Virus record (IMG/VR): IMGVR_UViG_3300007965_000002
Location: 1-64,000 of that record
DNA length: 64,000 nucleotides
Source: a virus
Taxonomy: Duplodnaviria; Caudoviricetes
Reading direction: 5' to 3' (one strand)
The translations under genes were made by a program, and so were the position numbers. The notes under the pieces were generated by a model. It worked only from the letters and a program-made list of their open reading frames with translations, searched no databases and had not been told where the DNA came from. Positions 9,323 through 34,418 of the stretch are shown here, in pieces. Within the stretch, counting starts at the first letter, position 1, and each line of letters starts with the position of its first letter.

Positions 9323-9624
9323 TACAGTACTTACAACAGATTATGGACTTAGCACTATTAAAAGATGAAGCTTTATCTATAAATGTAGGTATATGTTCAA
9401 ACCTATATTACCTATCTAATTTTAGATATGATGAAGATGATATTACTAAGTATTTCTACTCTTGGAAACATTTTTCAGGTGACTATAGGTACCCTGTGCC
9501 CTATCCGTCACTAGACCCTGATAAAGCATTTTTAACTATAGATAACCTATGGGTTGGTGAGTATGGTGAGTTACGTATTGATCTACTACAACACTTAATA
9601 GATTCGGTAGATAGATGGAGTTAA
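9313..9624 (+). CDS. hypothetical protein, paralog family W-x-GEYG-x-LR
   Basis: Same motifs as 8891. Confidence 0.75.
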   Translation: MRLVQYLQQIMDLALLKDEALSINVGICSNLYYLSNFRYDEDDITKYFYSWKHFSGDYRYPVPYPSLDPDKAFLTIDNLWVGEYGELRIDLLQHLIDSVDRWS

Positions 9625-23350: not shown

Positions 23351-23480
23351 ATCGGTTTCGCACTGGCGCAGGGTAGATTTTTATTTTTTGACCAAAATTT
23401 ATTTAGACTACACGTTCGGATTCGCACTTAGTCGGTTTCGCACTAGTAACCCTCGGTTTTGCACTTATCGGTTTCGCACT
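23351..23480 (+). repeat. five copies of TCGG(T/A)TT(C/T)GCACT
   Basis: At 23351, 23415, 23431, 23452 and 23467; a related copy at 22955. Confidence 0.8.
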
Positions 23481-23520: not shown

Positions 23521-23600
23521 GGACGTCTAGCCATCCAGACTTCTAGCCGTCTAGCCATCTGGACGTCCAGCCATCTGGCCATCTAGACGTCTAGACGTCC
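23521..23600. promoter_or_regulatory. array of 10 tandem in-phase met boxes (MetJ operator-like)
   Basis: GGACGTCT AGCCATCC AGACTTCT AGCCGTCT AGCCATCT GGACGTCC AGCCATCT GGCCATCT AGACGTCT AGACGTCC; consensus AGACGTCT. Confidence 0.85.
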
Positions 23601-23609
23601 GCAAAGTTG

Positions 23610-23656
23610 AATACGAATCATTCTCATTCCCACCTTGAATGCGAATCATTCTCATT
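23610..23656. promoter_or_regulatory. two Fur boxes
   Basis: AATACGAATCATTCTCATT (23610-23628) and AATGCGAATCATTCTCATT (23638-23656). Confidence 0.7.
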
Positions 23657-23672
23657 TCGATTACGATTAGCA

Positions 23673-23730
23673 GTTTACGTAAACGTCAATATGCGTTTTT
23701 TCTAATGTTTACCTTTACGTAAACGTCAAC
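23673..23730. promoter_or_regulatory. three LiuR-type boxes
   Basis: GTTTACGTAAACGTCAAT (23673), GTTTACCTTTACGTAAAC (23707), CTTTACGTAAACGTCAAC (23713) versus sTTkACGTwwACGTmAAs. Confidence 0.65.
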
Positions 23731-23772
23731 TAAGTTATACAAAGTTATCCACACTGTTATACATTATCCACA

Positions 23773-23788
23773 TGGCACGTTAATTGCA
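23773..23788 (+). promoter_or_regulatory. sigma54 -24/-12 box
   Basis: TGGCACG-TTAA-TTGCA. Confidence 0.75.
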
Positions 23789-23845
23789 TAATCCCTGTAA
23801 AGCAACCTAACGAGTTATCCACAACTTATTAACAGGGTTATACCA

Positions 23846-23861
23846 CTGTATGTTTATACAG
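23846..23861. promoter_or_regulatory. LexA (SOS) box
   Basis: CTGT-ATGTTTAT-ACAG within the palindrome TACCACTGTATGTTTATACAGTGGTA. Confidence 0.75.
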
Positions 23862-24043
23862 TGGTAGTAACATGTGGATAAGTGTAAACGTCCATTTTAA
23901 GGGGTCTAAATGGCTCTGTAAGTTGCTTTCAGGGATGGGCTATATATTAGGTGGTACTAGATTCTATAGCCTGGAGGGATTATATTAGATTTACCTGTTA
24001 TAGCGTGTAAACGGCGAACTACACGCGCAAGCGTGTAGTCCTA

Positions 24044-24097
24044 TGCAAGAATCATGCCAACTATTTTTCGACGCGGTGAATGAGAATAGTTCTCATT
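24044..24097 (-). promoter_or_regulatory. composite module: sigma54 box, GC motif, Fur box
   Basis: Reverse-complement TTGGCATGATTCTTGCA (24044-24060); GACGCGGTG; AATGAGAATAGTTCTCATT (24079-24097). Confidence 0.75.
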
Positions 24098-24107
24098 TGA
24101 CTTTATG

Positions 24108-24398
24108 CTAACACTGGAAATAAATTCTGTCTACTCCTTCTAGTATATTCATTTCTTCTAATATACCATAGCCTATTGGGGCTAATTTCTTAAAGTCCTG
24201 TACTGTAAATTGTGCTACTTCACAATAAGATTCGGCCTCTATATTGTCTAGCTCTATAGTAGATTCTAGAAGTAAATCATGCCATTTATCCCTAGGGTAC
24301 GCGCATAAAAACATACCCAAATTTATATCTAAGATAGTTAATTTTTCAACACTAGAATTTTTAATACTTCCTAGTCGTGCGTTATTAGAATAGCTCAT
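24108..24398 (-). CDS. pre-early hypothetical protein
   Basis: Operonic ORF with GGAG RBS. Confidence 0.65.
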   Translation of the reverse strand: MSYSNNARLGSIKNSSVEKLTILDINLGMFLCAYPRDKWHDLLLESTIELDNIEAESYCEVAQFTVQDFKKLAPIGYGILEEMNILEGVDRIYFQC

Positions 24399-24592
24399 TT
24401 TAAAAGCTCCTTAAGTTTAGGTAAATTAGCACGCCCTAATTTATTTCGGGCGTGATCTACGTTGGCACGTTGTCTAGTGATGCGCTTTTCAATATCAGAT
24501 TTTTCATCTAATATGCTGGCTAGCTTGCTGCAAGCAAATTCGTATTGTTGCAGCAAGTATAAATAGCGCTTTTCTTTATTTGATAGGCTCAT
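24395..24592 (-). CDS. pre-early coiled-coil protein
   Basis: Coupled ORF. Confidence 0.65.
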   Translation of the reverse strand: MSLSNKEKRYLYLLQQYEFACSKLASILDEKSDIEKRITRQRANVDHARNKLGRANLPKLKELLK

Positions 24593-25032
24593 TATCCAAA
24601 CTCCACTAATGCTAGCAATTCACATTCTGCGCCCATTTCATCCTCGTTATACTGTACAGCTTCTAGGTGGTTGAAAATATCCTCGTCAAATGTTTCCTGA
24701 TAGCATTCGGTATAATCGATTGAGCAGTTTGCAACCTGTTCGCGGTTAAATTCTGCTCTAGCTTTTTCGCTGTAACCTACTCGAGTTTTTGCCTTGGCTA
24801 GTGTTTGCTCGGTAAGCCAAGTACCAATTGAATTAGAGTAATCCATTGCAACGCTTTTAGTAGATACGAAAATCGGAGCAGGGGAAGCCATAGATCTAAC
24901 TAGTCCAGTGTTTAGTTGTACTGAATGGCCGATAACAATAGTTCTATTATTATCGTGAAACGATTTGGCTGAAAAGTCTATTTTATCACCACAAAGAGAT
25001 ACAGATTGGGTAGCGCGGTTTGAGTTTTTCAT
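24592..25032 (-). CDS. pre-early hypothetical protein
   Basis: Follows the 50-nt leader repeat and a promoter. Confidence 0.7.
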   Translation of the reverse strand: MKNSNRATQSVSLCGDKIDFSAKSFHDNNRTIVIGHSVQLNTGLVRSMASPAPIFVSTKSVAMDYSNSIGTWLTEQTLAKAKTRVGYSEKARAEFNREQVANCSIDYTECYQETFDEDIFNHLEAVQYNEDEMGAECELLALVEFG

Positions 25033-25079
25033 AATTTTGAATCCTAGCTTAGTGGGTTGAAATTATTTTCTTACCCGAC
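25030..25079 (-). repeat. 50-nt identical leader/RBS repeat (second copy 25913-25962)
   Basis: CATAATTTTGAATCCTAGCTTAGTGGGTTGAAATTATTTTCTTACCCGAC occurs twice. Confidence 0.9.
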
Positions 25080-25085
25080 CAAATA

Positions 25086-25113
25086 AGTATATCACACTGA
25101 CAACTGGTAGCAA
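25086..25113 (-). promoter_or_regulatory. pre-early promoter
   Basis: TTGCTA-16-TATACT with extended -10 TG. Confidence 0.6.
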
Positions 25114-25123
25114 GTAATCTTTT

Positions 25124-25179
25124 AGCCGTCTAGACGTCCAAACCCAAAATCGGCGCAGCGAATGAGAATCATTCTCATT
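25124..25179. promoter_or_regulatory. met-box pair plus perfect Fur box
   Basis: AGCCGTCT AGACGTCC (25124-25139); AATGAGAATCATTCTCATT (25161-25179). Confidence 0.75.
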
Positions 25180-25206
25180 TAGCTTTGCGTTAACAGTGAA
25201 CTTCTA

Positions 25207-25458
25207 TTATTCAAATTCCACTAATGCTAGTAGTTTGACAATTTCATTAACACTTTGTGAACAATTGTACTTATTAGCATCTGCTAATATACCCGCTAAA
25301 TCCTCCAAATCGTAAATTCGATAATGATAACAAAACTCATAATTTTTAACTTCTGGCTTTGTTACCGAAATGTTACAATAACAATCAATTTCGTTATCAC
25401 AGCCATGTAAGTATAGTTCAACCATTACACCCCCAGAAAAGCAACAAAGCGATAACAA
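25207..25458 (-). CDS. pre-early hypothetical protein
   Basis: ORF; the true start may be the internal MVELYLHG. Confidence 0.55.
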   Translation of the reverse strand: MLSLCCFSGGVMVELYLHGCDNEIDCYCNISVTKPEVKNYEFCYHYRIYDLEDLAGILADANKYNCSQSVNEIVKLLALVEFE

Positions 25459-25603
25459 TCACCACGCCGCAACAATTAAGTAACTCAACAGCCATACGTT
25501 CTGATAATCCTAGTTTTAACGCTACCATATCAATTAAACAATTCATTAAAATGCCCCCGCAAAAAGTGCTGCCATGATGAACGTAAACATAAGCTTTGAC
25601 CAA
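25418..25603 (-). CDS. small membrane/lipoprotein-like ORF
   Basis: Hydrophobic C-terminus; start uncertain. Confidence 0.4.
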   Translation of the reverse strand: MVKAYVYVHHGSTFCGGILMNCLIDMVALKLGLSERMAVELLNCCGVVIVIALLLFWGCNG

Positions 25604-25734
25604 CCAGCCTTAAAGTCGTTTGTACCTATTGAACGAGCTATACCGATTACGCCACACAAAGCCGCTAAAATAGTTAATATTAATACTAGCATGATTATCA
25701 CCTCTAGGCTAGCCCGTAGGCTAGCCTTATCCAA
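25546..25734 (-). CDS. small membrane protein
   Basis: Two TM helices; probable start MLVLIL after GAGGTG. Confidence 0.55.
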   Translation of the reverse strand: MDKASLRASLEVIIMLVLILTILAALCGVIGIARSIGTNDFKAGWSKLMFTFIMAALFAGAF

Positions 25735-25735
25735 G

Positions 25736-25915
25736 TTAAGTAGTTGATTTAGTGGTTAATGGCACCATTTGCATTTGTGAAAATATAGCTGCTAATTCGT
25801 CACGCTCAAGTGTAACAACTACCCCCGAGTCTGTTTGCAATTTAATCACCTGCTGACCTTTCAGTGTTCTGTGTTGAACCATGTAAACGACTTCTTGCTT
25901 GCCTGAAATAAACAT
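25736..25915 (-). CDS. pre-early hypothetical protein (59 aa, not in ORF track)
   Basis: MFISGKQEVVYMVQHRTLKG...; starts at the 50-nt leader repeat. Confidence 0.65.
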   Translation of the reverse strand: MFISGKQEVVYMVQHRTLKGQQVIKLQTDSGVVVTLERDELAAIFSQMQMVPLTTKSTT

Positions 25916-25968
25916 AATTTTGAATCCTAGCTTAGTGGGTTGAAATTATTTTCTTACCCGACAAAGAC

Positions 25969-25996
25969 AGTATAGCACACTGATAAATCATATCAA
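25969..25996 (-). promoter_or_regulatory. pre-early promoter
   Basis: TTGATA-16-TATACT with extended -10 TG. Confidence 0.6.
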
Positions 25997-26249
25997 CTAT
26001 TTATTTGGTCTAAAATGAAAAACATTGTTCTTACCAGGAACCAACCAGGGTTACCGGCAGGTAAACCTGCCCAGCCAGCCAGCCTAGGCAAATATACCTA
26101 TTTCTTGCAAAAGTCGCTTAAATCGCTGTTTTGGCGGCTTCCTGTCGGTGGATAATGTATAAGGGCTGTTTCAATGATTTTTTTATCCACAGGTTATTAA
26201 CAGGTTATACATTATCAACAGGGTTTATAGGCCACCAGCAACATTTTGA

Positions 26250-26266
26250 CAATGGTAAGACCAATT
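26250..26266. promoter_or_regulatory. PdhR-type operator
   Basis: CAATGGTAAGACCAATT versus AATTGGTAAGACCAATT (15/17). Confidence 0.6.
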
Positions 26267-26348
26267 GACCAAGTTATCCACAAAATTATTTTGTTTAATG
26301 TATAACTCACCTGTTAATAAGTCTAGACTTATCCACAAGTACCACACA

Positions 26349-26447
26349 TGCAAGAATCATGCCAAAAAATTTTCGGCGCGGCGAAATGAGAATGATTCTC
26401 ATTTGCATTCAACCCAGTGAGCTACCAGGATGAGAATGATTATCATT
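26349..26447 (-). promoter_or_regulatory. composite module copy 2: sigma54 box, GC motif, two Fur boxes
   Basis: TGCAAGAATCATGCCAA (26349-26365); GGCGCGGCG; AATGAGAATGATTCTCATT (26385-26403); GATGAGAATGATTATCATT (26429-26447). Confidence 0.75.
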
Positions 26448-26470
26448 TGCATATGCAAGTTTGCTAATAC

Positions 26471-26636
26471 AAGTTGGCATGGTTTTTGTTGCGAACTATT
26501 ATCATATGCGTTTTTGCTAATATACCTATATGCAAGTTTGCTAATATTAACATTAGATTCTACTAATATAAGTTGGCATGGTTTTTGTTGCGAACTATTA
26601 TCAACAAGAATCGTGCCAAGTCAAGAATCGTGCCAT
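26471..26636. repeat. 34-bp direct repeat and four sigma54-like boxes
   Basis: AAGTTGGCATGGTTTTTGTTGCGAACTATTATCA at 26471 and 26570; reverse TGGCACGATTCTTG at 26603 and 26620. Confidence 0.7.
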
Positions 26637-27178
26637 AACAGTAAAATCTAATATATAGCTCTAGAACGCGCTATAACGTGATTTGCCGGTACTATTATTT
26701 TTTGAAGCCCTAGTATCAAAACCTTTTTAAAATGCCACCAGCAGCCAAAGCGTGACTTATCCACAAAGTTATCCACAAGCAATGGGGTTGACATTCTCAA
26801 AAGGCCATTTCTATCCACAATTTGCTAGTTATACATAAAAAATCTGTGGATAAGTGAATAACTAGCATGTTTTACAAATGTCAAATTTATTTGAAATAAT
26901 GCTTAACAAAGTTATCCCCACCTGGTAGAGCCTGGACGTGCCCCTTGTGGATAACTATTACCAAATAGGCCGATTCCTTGGATTCTAGGAAAGTTATCCA
27001 CAAAATTACAAACCAGGAAAATTATCTGTGGATAAGTGCCCTGTGGATAAGTACCAAATAGCACCAGATTCAACAATCTATTTGTTTTGATATACGACTG
27101 ACCAAAAAATTAAAGTCGCTTAAATCGCTGTTTTGATGCCTTTACGGGCATATTAGTTATATCTAATATATAACCATG

Positions 27179-27195
27179 TTGGCATGGTTATTGCT
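27179..27195 (+). promoter_or_regulatory. sigma54 -24/-12 box
   Basis: TTGGCATGGTTATTGCT. Confidence 0.7.
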
Positions 27196-27395
27196 ACGCG
27201 CTCGCACCTGTTTCTTTTATAAACTAGCCCAGGCTTATGCATTCTAGTTATAACTTATATTAACTAGTTATTAGACGGTATTTTTTAAACGTGGTCTAAT
27301 AGCTTCATTGAAACGGGACATCATTTCAATGTTATTTTTACCCTGTGATGTGAAGCGGCTTTGATTAGCGCGAGGTACTAGGAAAAAATAAAAGC

Positions 27396-27470
27396 TTGAC
27401 AATAAAAACGGTTCCATGCAATAATAGCTCCACTGATTAGGCAGCATCCTAAACGTTCTTTAACAATCTG
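27396..27470 (+). promoter_or_regulatory. pre-early promoter with rrn-like boxB hairpin and boxA
   Basis: A-tract UP element, TTGACA-18-AATAAT, TTAGG-CAGCAT-CCTAA hairpin, CGTTCTTTAACA. Confidence 0.6.
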
Positions 27471-27591
27471 GTAACAAAAAAGTTTCACTTGCCTAGTTAA
27501 AGTTATCATTAATCACATTATTTATTAGTAGTGTGATTATTGACTAACTTTTAGTCAATACCACTAACTAAAATCATTGGAGATTTTAAAA

Positions 27592-27978
27592 ATGGCAAAG
27601 GCACCTAAAACCCAAGAAACGAAAAAAGCTACCGTATTGCGTAAAAATCACGGTACTAAGGGCAATTTTCCCCCTAAAAAATCTTGGGTAACATTAAACG
27701 GAAGGATTAAAACCGAAGTCGTTTTATGTTCTGGAAATTTCGAACCAATGCGAACGGGCGACAAAGACAAAGACGCCGAAGCAATGCGACTTTATCGCGA
27801 AGCATACCGCGCCGATTTGCGAACGCTTGAACGCCAAAAACCTGTTAAGCCTAAAACATTATTCGACCTTTATGTGTTGAACGGTGGCAAGGCAAGACAC
27901 CCGAAACAGCTAGCAGGCCAAATTGTGCAAATGCTCGGTTATTCGCATAATTCAAGCGCTGAAATTCGCATTATTTAG
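27592..27978 (+). CDS. basic pre-early protein
   Basis: GGAG RBS before ATG 27592. Confidence 0.7.
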   Translation: MAKAPKTQETKKATVLRKNHGTKGNFPPKKSWVTLNGRIKTEVVLCSGNFEPMRTGDKDKDAEAMRLYREAYRADLRTLERQKPVKPKTLFDLYVLNGGKARHPKQLAGQIVQMLGYSHNSSAEIRII

Positions 27979-27981
27979 GGG

Positions 27982-28188
27982 ATGCTAATGTTTATATTAT
28001 TTGTTGCTATATACATGTTAGCGGCTTATTTAATTGGTTTATTAACAGGCCAATTATTGGAGTCAAGAGATAAAACTTTCTTTACCTCAGAGCCTATCCA
28101 CGGCCACGTTTTATGTGTATTGTGTTTGTTCTGGCCTATCCTGCCCTTGCTTACGCAAGCCAGCAGGTTAAGGAAATTTAAACCGTAA
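27982..28188 (+). CDS. small membrane protein
   Basis: Two TM helices; position resembles the T5 pre-early membrane ORF. Confidence 0.6.
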   Translation: MLMFILFVAIYMLAAYLIGLLTGQLLESRDKTFFTSEPIHGHVLCVLCLFWPILPLLTQASRLRKFKP

Positions 28189-28277
28189 TATAGAGTTATC
28201 TTAAAGAGCGTTTATTAAGCGCTCTTTGTGGCTAACTTTAGCCATTAACTAACTAACCCTTTCTAGGAGATTTACAA

Positions 28278-28745
28278 ATGACTACAACTAAAACACCAGC
28301 TAAAAAATTCGCTTGGAATGATGAAACCTGTTCACAAGCTGCCGCGCTTTATGCTGAATTACTAGGTGCAACTTACAACCCTGTTACTAAAACGCTGGAT
28401 TTTGAAGTTGGTTCGAAGCCTACTGTCGATTTACACACGGTAGCAAACAGCGAAAAAGCTTTAAATGCAATCGCTGTTAAAATTGGGGCGAAATCTGGTC
28501 GTGCTGTTCGCGGTAAGTTATCAAAAGAGGGCGTTTATATTACCCTTGAAGCCGTCCCAACTCCAAGCACCTCGACACGTATCTCAAAAGGTCAGTACGT
28601 GCGTTCAATTGCCGAGGGTTTAGGCGTTGACCTTGAAACAATCCAAACGCTTGATAAGGCCAATTTAGAAGCGTTGGAAACCTTAACAGCGAAATTAAAC
28701 GGAGTGTTGAAAGCTGCCGAAATGCCAGAAATCACTGTTAAGTAA
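28278..28745 (+). CDS. A2: T5 A2-like DNA-binding / second-step-transfer protein
   Basis: FAWNDE..., IA..IGAKS..AVRGKLS, K.QYVR.IA resemble T5 A2; synteny with A1 and dmp. Confidence 0.8.
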   Translation: MTTTKTPAKKFAWNDETCSQAAALYAELLGATYNPVTKTLDFEVGSKPTVDLHTVANSEKALNAIAVKIGAKSGRAVRGKLSKEGVYITLEAVPTPSTSTRISKGQYVRSIAEGLGVDLETIQTLDKANLEALETLTAKLNGVLKAAEMPEITVK

Positions 28746-28782
28746 TTGTTAACTGGGCGTTAATTCTAGCGCCCTTTAATTT

Positions 28783-28798
28783 CCCGTAATGACGGAGT
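28783..28798 (+). promoter_or_regulatory. repeated hairpin-RBS leader CCCGTAATGACGGAGT (also at 29263 and 31335)
   Basis: Three identical 16-mers, each 6-8 nt before an ATG. Confidence 0.75.
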
Positions 28799-28806
28799 AT
28801 TAAAAA

Positions 28807-29244
28807 ATGTTTTCACCCAAACTCAACTTATCTGATTTAGTCGCAGAGCATAAAGGCCATATTGCAGCCGTATTAGATACCCAGTCCGAAATTGAGCGCT
28901 TAAAGGAACTAGCATTTCAGCAAAAAGAAGCGGCTAAACTTGACCGTGATACGTTAACGCAATTAATACGCCAATTGTCTAACGAGCGTCACCCAAGCAA
29001 CAACGGCATGTTGCAAGAAGCAAATGTTAGCGCTTTGCTTGGCGCAATCAATATTAACTTTACTGCTTATAACAGCTCAAATGATGAAGTTAGACTAGCG
29101 TATGATAAGGCCGTTAACGTCTACAATGACGCAATGGTAAAGCTATTTAAAGCAAAAATAGCATATATCGAAAGTTGTGCTGTTTATGGTAGTATGGCAG
29201 GCTTATCGGTTAACTGGCAAGCGCTAGAAAAACGTAGCAAGTAA
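28807..29244 (+). CDS. pre-early helical hypothetical protein
   Basis: ORF after the leader repeat. Confidence 0.7.
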   Translation: MFSPKLNLSDLVAEHKGHIAAVLDTQSEIERLKELAFQQKEAAKLDRDTLTQLIRQLSNERHPSNNGMLQEANVSALLGAININFTAYNSSNDEVRLAYDKAVNVYNDAMVKLFKAKIAYIESCAVYGSMAGLSVNWQALEKRSK

Positions 29245-29284
29245 GCAACCCCTTTAAATTTTCCCGTAATGACGGAGTAACAAA

Positions 29285-30958
29285 ATGAAACAAGTTAAAA
29301 ACCTATCTGTAGCGACACAAGCGGCATTGTTAAATCTTGCTCAAAATGAGTTTAATTATTATGGCAAGCGTACCCGTTCAACTCGCCTAACTTGTGCTGA
29401 ACAAATGCTTAGAGAATGTGAGTTAATCGGAACGGTAGAAAGTGCCGATTTAGTGGAATGGCTGGCAGAAAATAAACCAGCACCAGCACCAGCCAAAGAA
29501 AAAGCCGAAAAAGTTAACGCTCCGTTAGTTCCTACTTTCAACGGCGAGTTAATGCATCGTGACGATATTATGCAAAGCTTACCTGATGGCGTTTATATTA
29601 TTTCTAGTGCGCAAAATAATACATTGCCGCACCCTACACTAAAATCATTAAAAACTTTAGCGGGTGTTTTAGAGGCTCAACTTTTATTGATGCCTATTAA
29701 ATACACAACAACGCTTGATAGCTTGGAACGCAAAACGCCAACTTATGACGATAGTGTTACACCTTATCTAGTAGAGAATAATATCTGGCTAGGTGGTCGT
29801 GGCTGTGTTCGCTTGGCAGTTGGGGCAAATATCCTGCCAACCGCTAAGCAGCCAATTAACACGGCAGCAAACTTGAATAAAGGCGAGTCGTTAACCGTTG
29901 TTGCCTCACCTAAAAAGCAACTCAAAACACTAGCCCGTTCAAAAGATGGTGCACATCGTTGGGTATATACAACGGGTTCATGTACACAACGCCATTACAC
30001 TGACACCAGAGCAGGCGAGGAGGGATGTGATTCACATACGTTCGGGGCATTAGTTGTCACTGTTAATGAGGGTTATGTCGAGCATCAAGAAATTGTGGCA
30101 GATGAAAGCGGGGCATTTTATTATGATATGGCCTGTTATGATGGTTTTAACATAACAGAGATTCACAAGACACCAGCACTAGTTTTAGGTGACTTACATT
30201 GTGAAAAGATGTGCGAAAACTCGCTTGTAAGAGCATTAGCCCAAATTGATATTTATCAGCCCTCACAAGTTATTTTACACGATACACTAGATTTTATGTC
30301 TAGAAATCATCACAATCGAAATAGCGGTTTGTTTCTATATACAATGGGTTCCCGCTCTGTTTTAGATGATTTAAATGATGCTGTTCATGTTGTAAATAGA
30401 ATTGCTGCCCAATGCGATAGCGTTTTTATCGTTTGCAGTAATCACGACTTAGCCCTTGATAGCTGGCTTGATGACCCAAAATACAACGCTGATAAAGACC
30501 CTATCAACGCTAAAACGTATTATTTCTTGAAACATGCTGTTTTAGAAGCAATTGACAGCGGGGACGAACTAGACGCACCACGCTTAGCAATGTTTGATTT
30601 AGCAATCACTAAACTAGTCGAGCAGTTAGCGGAACCATTAGCCAGTAATGTTATATTTGGCCGTCTAGATATGAGCCATAAGATTAACGGATTCGAATGT
30701 GGTTCTCATGGGCATTTAGGTAACAGCGGCGCACGTGGTTCGCAACGCTCGTTTAAAGCTTATCAGATGCCTTGGATTAGCGGCCATACACATTCACCCG
30801 CCCGTGATGGTAATGTGTTAACCGTGGGCGTTACTGGTTCGCTGGAAATGGGCTACAATAAAGGTGGTACTATGTGGGATAGAGCAAACGCCTTAATCCT
30901 GCCAAATGATACAGCCGTATTAATTCCCACGTATGCAATAGGAGAGCAGCAAGCATAA
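29285..30958 (+). CDS. A1: T5 A1-like DNase / DNA-transfer protein
   Basis: 557 aa; IISSAQNNT, TTGSCT..HY, LGDLH, SNHD, HGH.G..GARG, GHTHSP, GVTGSL..GYNKG; synteny. Confidence 0.88.
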   Translation: MKQVKNLSVATQAALLNLAQNEFNYYGKRTRSTRLTCAEQMLRECELIGTVESADLVEWLAENKPAPAPAKEKAEKVNAPLVPTFNGELMHRDDIMQSLPDGVYIISSAQNNTLPHPTLKSLKTLAGVLEAQLLLMPIKYTTTLDSLERKTPTYDDSVTPYLVENNIWLGGRGCVRLAVGANILPTAKQPINTAANLNKGESLTVVASPKKQLKTLARSKDGAHRWVYTTGSCTQRHYTDTRAGEEGCDSHTFGALVVTVNEGYVEHQEIVADESGAFYYDMACYDGFNITEIHKTPALVLGDLHCEKMCENSLVRALAQIDIYQPSQVILHDTLDFMSRNHHNRNSGLFLYTMGSRSVLDDLNDAVHVVNRIAAQCDSVFIVCSNHDLALDSWLDDPKYNADKDPINAKTYYFLKHAVLEAIDSGDELDAPRLAMFDLAITKLVEQLAEPLASNVIFGRLDMSHKINGFECGSHGHLGNSGARGSQRSFKAYQMPWISGHTHSPARDGNVLTVGVTGSLEMGYNKGGTMWDRANALILPNDTAVLIPTYAIGEQQA

Positions 30959-31008
30959 TGTTAGATAGAGATTATAACGGCTACCCCATTAAGTAACTTA
31001 ACCCGCTT

Positions 31009-31024
31009 TGTTCCACGTGGAACA
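31009..31024. promoter_or_regulatory. parS site 1
   Basis: TGTTCCACGTGGAACA within the 24-bp perfect palindrome 31005-31028. Confidence 0.8.
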
Positions 31025-31055
31025 AAGCAACCCCCCTTTTTACGGAGTTACCCAA

Positions 31056-31292
31056 ATGTCACAAGTTAATATCACGTTTACCAAAGACACCCCAGAATCA
31101 TTCGAACCTGAAACAGGGCAATTTTTTCAGGTTAATGAATGCCATACAAACGAATTGATTTTAATAACTGACGACACCCATGTGTGCGTTATTTTATCTA
31201 GTGGTCAATTAATGGACGTTGAAAACCTAGACGAAAAGCTTACCCGCGATAACTTAGTTATTGATTTAAAAATCGAAGCAACCATTAAATAA
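31056..31292 (+). CDS. pre-early hypothetical protein (78 aa)
   Basis: GGAG RBS before ATG 31056; the track start 31008 is unlikely. Confidence 0.65.
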   Translation: MSQVNITFTKDTPESFEPETGQFFQVNECHTNELILITDDTHVCVILSSGQLMDVENLDEKLTRDNLVIDLKIEATIK

Positions 31293-31303
31293 TTAACCCG
31301 CTT

Positions 31304-31319
31304 TGTTCCACGTGGAACA
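31304..31319. promoter_or_regulatory. parS site 2
   Basis: Identical palindrome at 31300-31323. Confidence 0.8.
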
Positions 31320-31358
31320 AAGCAACCCTTTTTCCCCGTAATGACGGAGTATTAAAAA

Positions 31359-31982
31359 ATGAGCCAATTTAAGCCAAAGCATATTACAATTTTTGACCTA
31401 GACAGAACCGTTATAGATAGCGACCATCGCACCCCCTACGATAATGATGGCAACCTAGATTTAGCAGCATATCGCGACAACCAAACACACGCTAACATTA
31501 TGAATGACACACTTTTACCCTTAGCTAAACTTATGCAATCGCGCATAGCCCAAGGGGAAACCGTGGTAATCGTTACTGCAAGGCGCATGATTAAGAGTGA
31601 TTACATATACCTAAGAAAGAACGGATTAAAAACCGCGTATACTTGCAGTCGTGACCAATTATTCAAGCGCTTCGATAATGAAACCGCATCAATGATTTAT
31701 AATCTTAATGATGCAAACTACAAATGGCATTGGTTTAACCATTTACAGAACCGTTTTCCTCTTGCCTCGTTTACTGTATACGATGACCATAAAGGCGTAT
31801 TAAAGGTGGCGCAATCGTTTGGCTTTCAAGTGTACGATGCAATTAGTGTTAATAGTATGCTGGCTGATTTTCTTGATATGGGATTTGAAGAAGGATTTGC
31901 GCAAGGATTAGACGCGGGTTATCTGGACGGGGAAATGAGCGCTATTCATCAGGTAATTGAATTTGACAGCAGAGCAGCCTAA
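31359..31982 (+). CDS. dmp: deoxynucleoside-5'-monophosphatase (HAD)
   Basis: IFDLDRT, VTAR, YDDH HAD motifs; last pre-early gene, as in T5. Confidence 0.8.
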   Translation: MSQFKPKHITIFDLDRTVIDSDHRTPYDNDGNLDLAAYRDNQTHANIMNDTLLPLAKLMQSRIAQGETVVIVTARRMIKSDYIYLRKNGLKTAYTCSRDQLFKRFDNETASMIYNLNDANYKWHWFNHLQNRFPLASFTVYDDHKGVLKVAQSFGFQVYDAISVNSMLADFLDMGFEEGFAQGLDAGYLDGEMSAIHQVIEFDSRAA

Positions 31983-32103
31983 GCGCAATGCTGGTAGTAT
32001 ATGCATCAATGCTAATATAGTGCAATATGTTAGCATTGCATTATCCCCCTGTTAGAGCATTAGCCCTTACTAATATATAGTAAGGGCATTTTTATTATGT
32101 ACA

Positions 32104-32208
32104 AATGATAATCAATATCAAATGAGAATCATTCGCATATGATAAGCCAGGAACAAATGATAATCATTCGCATTTAGGGTGGGGGCGGTAATGAGACTCA
32201 TTCTCATT
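32104..32208. promoter_or_regulatory. four Fur boxes
   Basis: At 32104, 32121, 32156 and 32190 (e.g. AATGATAATCATTCGCATT, AATGAGACTCATTCTCATT). Confidence 0.7.
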
Positions 32209-32305
32209 TGACCCAGGCCCCACCCCTTTTCATGTAACTACTATGAAAAATTAGAGGAAATGGCTTAGGCCGCCTCTAAGAGCAACTAAGCGGTTCCCTG
32301 AAAGC

Positions 32306-32455
32306 AACTATGCATAATTCCCCAACTATGCATAATTCCCATAACTATACATAATTCCCATAACTATGCATAATTCCCCTAACTCCCTATACTCCCTTTA
32401 CTTCCCAACTTCCTATACTCCCTTTACTTCCTATACTCCCCGCACCCCTCCACTC
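32306..32455 (+). repeat. short tandem repeats near the inferred genome end
   Basis: AACTAT(G/A)CATAATTCCC x4, then CCTATACTCCCTTTACTT-like repeats. Confidence 0.8.
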
Positions 32456-32624
32456 CCAAAGAGACTACTAATCTAAAAGACTCCAAATACAATTCTTAAT
32501 TTTTTAATTTAAAAATACTTGGCTAGTACCTTACTTGCATCCGAGGTAGAAAATTAATCTTTACATATATTAATAATAACGTTATAATAACCCTATTATT
32601 AACACACATCTAAGAGGAAAGTAT

Positions 32625-33110
32625 ATGTCTACCCAAGATAAACTAGTAGAGTATGATGACGCGTTGCTCCCAGAGACTATTAGTCCCCAGGGATTATTAA
32701 TTGCAGACACATACCTAACCAATGGCCAAGATGCTAAGAAAACAGCTCTAGCTTTAAAGATTGATGAACAAGAAGTTCGTAGATTATTAAGAACACCAGA
32801 AGTCCGTTCGTATACTAACGCAGTATTCATGGAGACAGGCTTCAGAAATAGACACCGCATGTTTGGTGCCTTAGACGAGATTATTAACCGTAAGTTAGAA
32901 GAAATGGAAGAAACTGGTACTACTACAGATGCAGATATTTTAGAACTAATGGTTAAGTATCATAACATGAAAATGGCAGAGATGAAAATGGAAAAGGAAC
33001 TACACGAAGCTAAGTCCCCTACCATAGGTCGTCAGAATAACGTACAAGTTAACCTTAATGGCGGCAGCAACTACGACAATCTTCTAGCCTCCCTAGCCAA
33101 AGGAAATTAA
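32625..33110 (+). CDS. terS: terminase small subunit
   Basis: ISPQGL.IADTYL, F...G(F)RNR; directly upstream of terL; T5-like. Confidence 0.85.
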   Translation: MSTQDKLVEYDDALLPETISPQGLLIADTYLTNGQDAKKTALALKIDEQEVRRLLRTPEVRSYTNAVFMETGFRNRHRMFGALDEIINRKLEEMEETGTTTDADILELMVKYHNMKMAEMKMEKELHEAKSPTIGRQNNVQVNLNGGSNYDNLLASLAKGN

Positions 33111-34418
33111 ATGGAACTCTCTAGAGATTTTATTTCACGTACTAGCATAACCAACTACCCTGTCGGGGAAAGATTTTTCAAATTGCCTGTCGAAAATATG
33201 ATGTTGCAGGAAGGAATTATCCCCAACGAGCCACAAATAGCTATCATTAATGCGTTGAACGATCCTAACATACGCTTCGTGGTCGGCTGCGTTTCTAGGC
33301 GTGTCGGAAAATCTTTCATCGCCTATACTTTAGGATTCTTAAAAGCTTTAGAGCCTAATGTAAAAGTACTAGTTGTGTGCCCCAACTACTCGCTAGCGAA
33401 TATTGGTTGGACACATATCAAAGGACTTATACGTAAGTATGGTTTAGAAACAGAGAAAGAAAACGCCAAGGATAAAGAGATTGAGTTATCTAATGGTACT
33501 CTTATTAAACTAGCTTCTGCTGGTAATGCTGACTCCGCTGTTGGTCGTTCTTACGACTTTATTATATTTGACGAAGCGGCTATCTCACCTAAGGGTGGGG
33601 ATGCTTTCTCAATTCAGTTACGCCCTACACTTGATAAACCTAACTCTAAAGCTTTGTTTATTTCAACACCTCGAGGTGCTAACTGGTTCCAAGAGTTCTA
33701 CCGTCGTGGGTTTAGTAGTGATCCCTTGTTATCTAAGTGGTGTTCATTACATGGTACTTACCGTGATAACCCTCGTGCTAGTAAGGAAGATATTGATGAA
33801 GCACGTGCTAATAATAGCCCTGCATTCTTTAAACAAGAATACGAAGCTGACTTTGCAACGTTTGAGGGTCAAATTTACGAATCATTCGATTACGAGGAAC
33901 ATGTATTCAATGATGAGGACTTATATGGCCGCTTAATGGTTTCGGAAGATTGTGAGGGTATCCTAGGTATTGACCCAGGTTATCGTGACCCAACTGCCAT
34001 GACAGGTATTAAGTATGATGACGAATCTGACTGCTACTATATTCTAGATGAGTATGAAGAAGCAGGTGCTCAGACTTCTGTTCACGCTAAGTTTATTAGA
34101 CAGTTCGAAGATAGATTTGATCCTCACTATATATTCGTTGACTCGGCGGCTGCTCAGTTTATTGCTGACTTAGCTTACGATTATGATATATCTAGTGCGA
34201 AAGCTAATAAAGCTCAGTCCGAGGGGATTGGACACTTAGCATCATTAATACATGCAGGTAAGATAAAAGTATGGCATAAGTGTACTAAGACTATTAGTAT
34301 GTTTATGAACTATAGATGGGATGATAAAGAAGGCTTAACTTCAGAACGTCCTTTACACAATGAATACTCTCATATGGCAGATGCCGTGAGATACGCAATT
34401 TATACACACAATAGATAA
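33111..34418 (+). CDS. terL: terminase large subunit
   Basis: SRRVGKS Walker A, FIIFDEAA Walker B, STPRG, GIDPG, HMADAVRY. Confidence 0.95.
   Translation: MELSRDFISRTSITNYPVGERFFKLPVENMMLQEGIIPNEPQIAIINALNDPNIRFVVGCVSRRVGKSFIAYTLGFLKALEPNVKVLVVCPNYSLANIGWTHIKGLIRKYGLETEKENAKDKEIELSNGTLIKLASAGNADSAVGRSYDFIIFDEAAISPKGGDAFSIQLRPTLDKPNSKALFISTPRGANWFQEFYRRGFSSDPLLSKWCSLHGTYRDNPRASKEDIDEARANNSPAFFKQEYEADFATFEGQIYESFDYEEHVFNDEDLYGRLMVSEDCEGILGIDPGYRDPTAMTGIKYDDESDCYYILDEYEEAGAQTSVHAKFIRQFEDRFDPHYIFVDSAAAQFIADLAYDYDISSAKANKAQSEGIGHLASLIHAGKIKVWHKCTKTISMFMNYRWDDKEGLTSERPLHNEYSHMADAVRYAIYTHNR

Follow-up and report, generated by a model that had tools for sequence, protein, structure and literature searches.

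Which protein, if any, reads the short palindromes that recur in the gene-free DNA of a T5-like terminal repeat? We address this question for one phage sequence, the first 64 kb (hereafter the window) of the 89,861-bp IMG/VR virus record IMGVR_UViG_3300007965_000002, judged 77% complete, in which ten 19-bp palindromes resembling binding sites of the host iron regulator Fur lie between positions 23,610 and 32,208. The record is a T5-like (Demerecviridae) phage contig in which both terminal repeats have been collapsed into one copy by assembly, and because the T5 pre-early block lies inside this collapsed repeat, the span 23.6-32.2 kb is first-step-transfer DNA, the ~8% of the genome that enters the cell ahead of the rest. 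That T5 injection pauses once 8% of the genome has entered was recognised about 60 years ago, and how the cis-acting stop region works still lacks an explanation. A paper from 2026 goes no further than to describe repeats, palindromes, and DnaA boxes there, with possible interactions with host components; should the palindromes be Fur sites, the pause would gain a candidate in a host protein that is specific, abundant, and well studied. On the sequence evidence assembled below, we think that the ten palindromes are probably selected, high-affinity docking sites for host Fur in the non-coding DNA of the terminal repeat.

Fur-like palindromes of the terminal repeat

A preliminary description of this DNA had placed ten 19-bp palindromes of 9-1-9 form in three non-coding blocks and had called them gammaproteobacterial Fur boxes. 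All ten are present at the coordinates it gave, and none overlaps an open reading frame (ORF). Nine of them (23610, 23638, 24079, 25161, 26385, 26429, 32121, 32156, and 32190) lie within three mismatches of AATGAGAATCATTCTCATT, compared with 0.03 expected from dinucleotide shuffles of the window; the tenth, at 32104 (AATGATAATCAATATCAAA), is more diverged from this phage consensus yet attains 18.5 bits on the Fur matrix introduced below. The site at 25161 is a perfect palindrome, as had been described, and the one at 26385 is perfect as well. The rest of the 89,861-bp record holds no further match to AATGAGAATCATTCTCATT.

For an independent standard, we learned a Fur matrix de novo from 16 intergenic regions of Escherichia coli K-12 that control classic Fur-regulated genes (fepA-fes, fepD-entS, fepB-entC, fhuA, fur, tonB, cirA, exbB, fecI, fecA, fiu, fhuE, sufA, feoA, ryhB, and fhuF), using a palindromic expectation-maximisation search from 627 unbiased seeds. 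The matrix converged to AATGATAATCATTATCATT, in a 9-1-9 register identical to that of the phage motif and with the lowest information at positions 6 and 14 (T 0.59, G 0.22, A 0.15). On a scale with a maximum of 26.3 bits, the ten phage sites score 18.5-24.6 bits, whereas the best sites of the real promoters have a median of 18.1 and a top value of 22.4 (ryhB). At a threshold of at least 14 bits, the matrix finds 12 positions in 3.2 kb of non-coding DNA, where 0.06 are expected, and 13 in the whole window, where 0.4 are expected. Base frequencies among the phage sites track the matrix down to its second choices (C at position 5 and C at position 9), and the half-site ATTCTCATT or GAGAAT is found in the real operators of ryhB, fhuA, fecI, fhuE, exbB, and feoA—for example, in its phage-type form, as AATAATAATCATTCTCATT in ryhB, TATAATAATCATTCTCGTT in fhuA, and TATGAGAATGGTTATCATT in fecI.

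The comparison also works in the opposite direction. Used as a probe of the K-12 chromosome with up to three mismatches, the phage consensus matched 10 places, compared with one for a reversed control pattern; four of the 10 are the promoters of ryhB, fecI, gpmA, and yoeA, and the phage motif therefore retrieves the Fur regulon. A fifth match overlaps the beginning of yddA, which heads an operon that also encodes the TonB-dependent receptor YddB. Gel shifts have shown Fur binding at the ryhB, gpmA, and yoeA sites, and Fur dimers in clusters are reported to be offset by 6 bp (PMC2189734). Strong partners at +6 bp accompany two of the ten phage sites (partners at 26391 and 26435) and also occur in T5 at 9577 and 9612, the remaining sites being single. 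The published Vibrio Fur consensus, AATGATAATAATTATCATT, comes from a study in which the DNA-binding domain of Fur is 86% identical between E. coli and Aliivibrio (PMC7536154), and it departs from the phage consensus at the central position and at positions 6 and 14, which carry little information, but nowhere else.

The phage sites share with E. coli operators (ryhB, fecI, gpmA, yoeA, fhuA, and fhuF) and with the Vibrio consensus the 19-bp 9-1-9 form, the informative positions, and the tolerated variants; the 6-bp-offset partners of two phage sites recall the arrangement described for Fur clusters. They differ from host sites in having G at position 6 and C at position 14, in forming arrays in gene-free DNA beside DnaA and LexA-type sites, and in their placement, as host sites overlap the -35/-10 elements of iron-regulated promoters and phage sites mostly do not. 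All ten are 19-bp 9-1-9 inverted repeats that match the matrix at its informative positions; they are statistically equivalent to real Fur operators, enriched, and conserved. As far as sequence comparison can carry it, the earlier identification of the motif as the gammaproteobacterial Fur consensus is well supported, by the shared de novo register and by the top matrix scores.

Counterparts in T5, relatives, and the left DNA end

In T5, the "Repeat Region 3" or injection stop region (AY587007, 9468-9637) contains copies 1-4 of direct repeat C, which overlap palindromes E, F, G, H, and I. On balance, we take the window palindromes to be the counterparts of these elements and of a palindrome that lies 16-29 bp from the left end in relatives. 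The repeat unit is shared (AATGAGAATCATTATCATT, AATACGAATCATT..., and AATGAGATTGATTCTCATT in T5), T5 palindrome G (AATGAGAATCATTATCATT) reaches 25.5 bits on the Fur matrix, and a rare half-site, AATACGAAT, is common to T5 palindrome E and the window site at 23610. In both phages the array occupies non-coding terminal-repeat DNA adjoining paired DnaA-box inverted repeats and a LexA-type palindrome (D in T5), and the ~35-bp spacing of T5 sites recurs in the window phage; the pair at 23610 and 23638 is the equivalent of the T5 direct repeat C/palindrome array beside a DnaA-box cluster. The differences are of lineage and extent: the window phage is distant (its A1 protein is 34% identical to the T5 group) and has ten sites over three blocks, four of them at the left terminus, whereas T5 has one main-block array and weaker sites at 231 and 6022.

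The T5 array coincides with the calculated shear point of first-step DNA, the candidate injection stop signal (10.1101/866236). In the same work, Davison considered the function of the T5 repeats and palindromes impossible to guess, without mention of Fur or iron, and proposed a DnaA-box model that resembles ours in letting a host DNA-binding protein act on conserved sites in the same non-coding blocks. The 14 exact DnaA boxes of the window have the same arrangement; the difference is that DnaA is the only factor named in that model, to which we add Fur as a second, equally putative one. Annotation of these repeats in T5 goes back decades; the literature searched, which did not cover Heusterspreute 1987, Wang 2005, or Davison 2015, held no link between T5-like phages and Fur.

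The region had zero megablast matches among GenBank phages, and an IMG/VR search of related loci with A1 gave no close relative; relatives were instead reached through the A1 protein. Five complete ones (T5, My1, phi 3, Ceto, and AhSzq-1) were picked by A1 homology and not by the motif. The terminal repeats hold seven sites in T5, nine in My1, two in phi 3, and four in Ceto, and AhSzq-1 has five, while whole-genome scans of the unique regions (~100 kb) of these five phages found no sites except one weak match in Ceto. Across the phages of Escherichia, Pectobacterium, Aeromonas, and Vibrio, as in the present lineage, the motif stays constant, with A2 identity down to 27-36%. In the three closest relatives, found through A2 (66-69% identical), the sites that follow dmp stand as conserved islands in diverged non-coding DNA, with GGCGGTAATGAGAC..TTCTCATTTG invariant. 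In the window the feature reaches a deep marine branch of the family and is unusually rich there (ten sites, three blocks).

More widely, over 118 IMG/VR contigs contain the exact palindrome, and 39 of 118 loci examined share proteins with the window. Some of the other loci are fragments of T4-like marine phages or look bacterial, one with a FecR-type protein; given the T4-like fragments, the motif is not confined to T5-like phages. Two such loci (L046 5811-8544 and L111, 30% GC) carry Fur-like palindromes, including the exact phage consensus, between T4-like marine genes for peptide deformylase, an SbcC-like ATPase, and an AAA_5 protein.

At the left terminus, the palindrome at 32190 belongs to an element of the form GGGCGGT-AATGAGACT-NN-TTCTCATT, which is separated from the physical end by 16-29 bp in My1, phi 3, and Ceto. 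The GGGCGGT..AGAC left-terminus element is also found at three other loci (L142 15333-15434, L141 14708-14839, and L139 8201-8301), and in My1, phi 3, PR1, and T5 the DNA ends 26-39 bp after AGACT. The GC stem that had been described around the 32190 site is real: GGGTGGGG (32177-32184) pairs with CCCCACCC (32218-32225), enclosing the palindrome, and as single-stranded DNA it folds at -17.6 kcal/mol (z = -5.1). Taking My1, phi 3, and Ceto as models, we predict the physical left end at ~32225-32240, inside the GC stem, which would place four Fur-like sites in the last 130 bp of the first-entering tip. Just past this predicted end, tandem repeats lie at 32290-32460: AACTATGCATAATTCCC in about five copies, then units of the CTATACTCCCTTTACTTCC type.

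A proposed docking platform and its rivals

The palindromes sit among sites for other host proteins—14 exact DnaA boxes (TTATCCACA) in three clusters within 23.4-27.6 kb, with a looser pattern at 0.07 per kb elsewhere in the window, and a LexA-type box, CTGTATGTTTATACAG, the positional counterpart of T5 palindrome D (TACTGTATAAATATACAGTA)—which suggests that first-step DNA is laid out as a platform on which host factors dock. In the mechanism that we propose, iron-loaded Fur dimers would bind the sites as this DNA enters the cell, some as 6-bp-phased pairs and several at ~35-bp spacing, and their binding beside the DnaA-box arrays and the LexA-type box would give rise to a complex of host proteins, one platform forming on the DNA tip and a second on the DNA immediately ahead of the injection pause. 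The feature marks both ends of the first-injected DNA. The role of such a complex would be architectural, in pausing or anchoring DNA, in blocking RNA polymerase or nucleases, or in marking repeat boundaries, and a role of this kind is likely, rather than classical repression of iron genes. In phage lambda, the IHF site in cos provides an experimentally shown case of a host protein acting as an architectural, non-regulatory factor near a phage genome terminus; protein and motif are different there, and the role of Fur here is putative.

Among the functions suggested in the preliminary description, control of DNA entry is the most worthwhile, given that the injection-stop region is where the homologous T5 repeats lie. 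In a speculative extension, to which we assign a small probability, the trans-acting host component still missing from accounts of the T5-type injection pause and of end protection would be iron-loaded Fur on these arrays, with DnaA and LexA bound at neighbouring sites. If true, the iron status of the cell, which also controls the T5 receptor FhuA, would gate two-step DNA entry; the remark made earlier that this receptor is under Fur agrees with the Fur site present in the fhuA promoter.

Several observations weigh against Fur docking. Position 6 is G in the phage sites (0.6-0.8) and T in E. coli sites (0.59), a systematic substitution that is not explained by Fur alone. In the Vibrio consensus, the double change A14G/C16A weakens binding by Aliivibrio Fur (PMC7536154); in the phage motif, position 14 is C rather than G, and C16 is retained. 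Copy number varies widely, with one or two sites in D258 and PR1 and, in a close relative (L148), one beside the DnaA boxes. T5, PR1, and D258 keep GGCGGT-N4-AGAC at the terminus but without a palindrome there, so half of the 32190 site is under a non-Fur constraint, probably end recognition. Repeats of the T5 direct repeat D type in the same blocks fit no host factor that we know of, and conservation alone is therefore no proof of a host binder. Finally, the available text of Mutalik et al. 2020 reports fhuA, not fur, as a T5 hit, and to that extent Fur is probably not essential for infection.

If Fur binds, it could still do so for regulation, either by iron-responsive repression of pre-early promoters or by titration that de-represses host iron uptake, the latter having been proposed earlier as a supply for phage iron enzymes. 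The phage sites match the best host operators in strength, those at 26429/26435 and 25161 are 25-50 bp upstream of promoter-like -35 elements, and 20 sites per genome, multiplied by replicating copies, could rival cellular Fur. E. coli BL21 that over-expresses FeoB or YdiE is protected from T5, an effect credited by the authors to Fur repression of fhuA (PMC7553319); the result can be counted for regulation and fits the architectural view equally. What speaks against regulation is placement. No site overlaps any strong predicted -35/-10 pair (strong promoter-like elements lie at 25113-25086, 25996-25969, and 27396-27425), and the sole overlaps are with weak promoter-like matches made by the boxes themselves. 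The palindromes are instead mostly 25-400 bp away from, and upstream of, predicted -35/-10 elements or past terminators, four of them after the dmp terminator, the last one, at the DNA end; the T5 array likewise has no annotated promoter close by, and the unique part of the genomes is without Fur-like sites and so offers no phage genes there to regulate. Because the sites are mostly outside operator positions, classical iron-dependent repression of pre-early genes is poorly supported. Titration that boosts host iron uptake is unlikely because in T5-type phages A1 destroys host DNA within minutes, according to one report on T5 (10.64898/2026.04.02.716235), leaving no host genes to de-repress, and the contig encodes A1. 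As to iron enzymes, no small-subunit ribonucleotide reductase was found in the record, which represents ~77% of the genome. Regulation in either form is thus improbable in our estimation, and of the interpretation given in the preliminary description the Fur-like identity of the motif is well backed by sequence comparison, while the functions find no support in the form given.

A different possibility is that the palindromes are operators of a dimeric phage protein—A2, the small terminase subunit, or another—that merely resemble Fur boxes. A2, encoded at 28278-28745, is a DNA-binding dimer required for second-step transfer (10.1101/866236), and its AlphaFold model, helical with a pLDDT of 76, appears to contain helix-turn-helix-like helices. 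The G at position 6, unlike host sites, would suit such a protein, as would the overlap of the terminal palindrome with a terminus element probably recognised by packaging proteins and the location of sites near both boundaries of the terminal repeat. However, this protein would have to share Fur specificity at 16 of 18 informative positions, with the second choices and the 6-bp phasing included, and a chance match of that extent is improbable; moreover, the motif stays constant while A2 drops to the low identities given above, A2 is not Fur-like by family or fold search, and the exact palindrome is also present in loci that are not T5-like, such as the T4-like contigs with peptide deformylase and SbcC-like proteins. 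We consider a phage operator unlikely, though deserving of more weight than regulation. A2 as a hidden Fur-like protein was rejected (no such Pfam match, and no PDB match at E <= 0.001). It has also been usual in the literature to view the region as nested repeats and palindromes possibly forming secondary structures, and the repeats could act as DNA structure—cruciforms or hairpins in replication, nicking, packaging, or end processing—with the Fur likeness a by-product of AT-rich palindromes. The terminal 49 nt do form a stable snap-back hairpin that carries the palindrome at the tip. Yet structure would constrain pairing, whereas here the sequence itself follows the Fur matrix position by position in lineages far apart; many imperfect palindromes still score high, and an AT-rich 9-bp stem with a 1-nt loop is a weak hairpin. 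We hold this explanation to be very improbable. The palindromes were also considered as RNA-level terminators and rejected, the stems being AT-rich and a consistent T-run absent from most copies.

Features around the palindromes

Homologues of A1, A2, dmp, and the small and large terminase subunits (TerS and TerL) were all found, in T5-like order, and the pre-early block (A2, A1, dmp) runs in reverse of the T5 map. The 89,861-bp record contains no Fur-family gene. Coordinates are collected in the table.

Table. Fur-like palindromes, sites for other host proteins, and genes in the window (bits refer to the E. coli Fur matrix)
Feature	Position	Strand	Remarks
Fur-like palindrome AATACGAATCATTCTCATT	23610..23628	.	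19.5 bits; variant half-site AATACGAAT as in T5 palindrome E
Fur-like palindrome AATGCGAATCATTCTCATT	23638..23656	.	22.6 bits
First DnaA-box cluster	23745..23881		TTATCCACA at 23745, 23764, 23815 and 23873 (minus strand)
LexA-type box CTGTATGTTTATACAG	23846-23861		within first DnaA-box cluster; sole CTGT-N8-ACAG in 64 kb
Fur-like palindrome AATGAGAATAGTTCTCATT	24079..24097	.	22.1 bits; 11 bp past stop of minus-strand ORF 24108-24398
Perfect palindrome AATGAGAATCATTCTCATT	25161..25179	.	24.6 bits; 47 bp upstream of -35 of minus-strand promoter-like site 25113-25086
Second and third DnaA-box clusters	26183..27050	.	ten exact TTATCCACA boxes together
Perfect palindrome AATGAGAATGATTCTCATT	26385..26409	.	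24.6 bits; +6-bp overlapping site 26391 (16.0 bits); adjoins second DnaA-box cluster
Fur-like site GATGAGAATGATTATCATT	26429..26453	.	19.0 bits; +6-bp overlapping site 26435 (17.6 bits); ~25 bp upstream of plus-strand promoter-like 26474
A2 homologue, pre-early DNA-binding protein	28278..28745	+	phrog_1725 / PF26822 Phage_T5_A2
A1 homologue, "DNA transfer protein"	29285..30958	+	49% identity to A1 of Vibrio phages Brizo and Ceto; ~34% to T5 group
dmp (deoxynucleoside 5'-monophosphatase) homologue	31359..31982	+	followed by terminator-like hairpin 32063-32087
Fur-like site AATGATAATCAATATCAAA	32104..32122	.	18.5 bits; first of four after dmp terminator
Fur-like site AATGAGAATCATTCGCATA	32121..32139	.	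20.4 bits
Fur-like site AATGATAATCATTCGCATT	32156..32174	.	23.4 bits; conserved island in closest relatives
Conserved left-terminus element	32177..32225	.	GC stem GGGTGGGG/CCCCACCC around GGCGGT-AATGAGACTCATTCTCATT; palindrome 32190-32208, 20.9 bits
Small and large terminase subunits	32625-34418		downstream of dmp

Other repeats share these non-coding blocks. The sequence TCGG(A/T)TT(C/T)GCAC occurs four times at 23416-23480 and is the reverse complement of T5 "direct repeat D" (TGTGCAAATCCGACA), which is therefore conserved in this distant lineage. A ~60-bp module, GCAAGAATCATGCCAA...TTTTCG.CGCGG.GAA(A)TGAGAAT..TTCTCATTTG, is present in two copies (24040-24100 and 26345-26405), each ending in one Fur-like palindrome, and may be a counterpart of the T5 IRC/IRD-type repeats. 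Near-identical 50-bp modules, CATAATTTTGAATCCTAGCTTAGTGGGTTGAAATTATTTTCTTACCCGAC, at 25030-25080 and 25915-25965 form the leaders of two minus-strand operons, and in each case a TTG..A-16-TATACT promoter-like site lies upstream of the module.

Sites resembling those of a further host regulator, MetJ, were also noticed. A run of ten tandem 8-bp units like the "met box" AGACGTCT occupies 23521-23600 and ends in AGACGTCTAGACGTCC, and a further met-box-like pair lies at 25124-25139; counted as two tandem met boxes with at most 4 of 16 mismatches, 11 windows were found where 1.7 are expected. The array is not in T5 and has blastn matches in Aeromonas, Vibrio, and Providencia phages and in jumbo phage 121Q. 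Lastly, E. coli-type Chi octamers (CCACCAGC) stand on the plus strand in the same orientation at 26232 and 26735 within the terminal repeat, with one more in the 64 kb.

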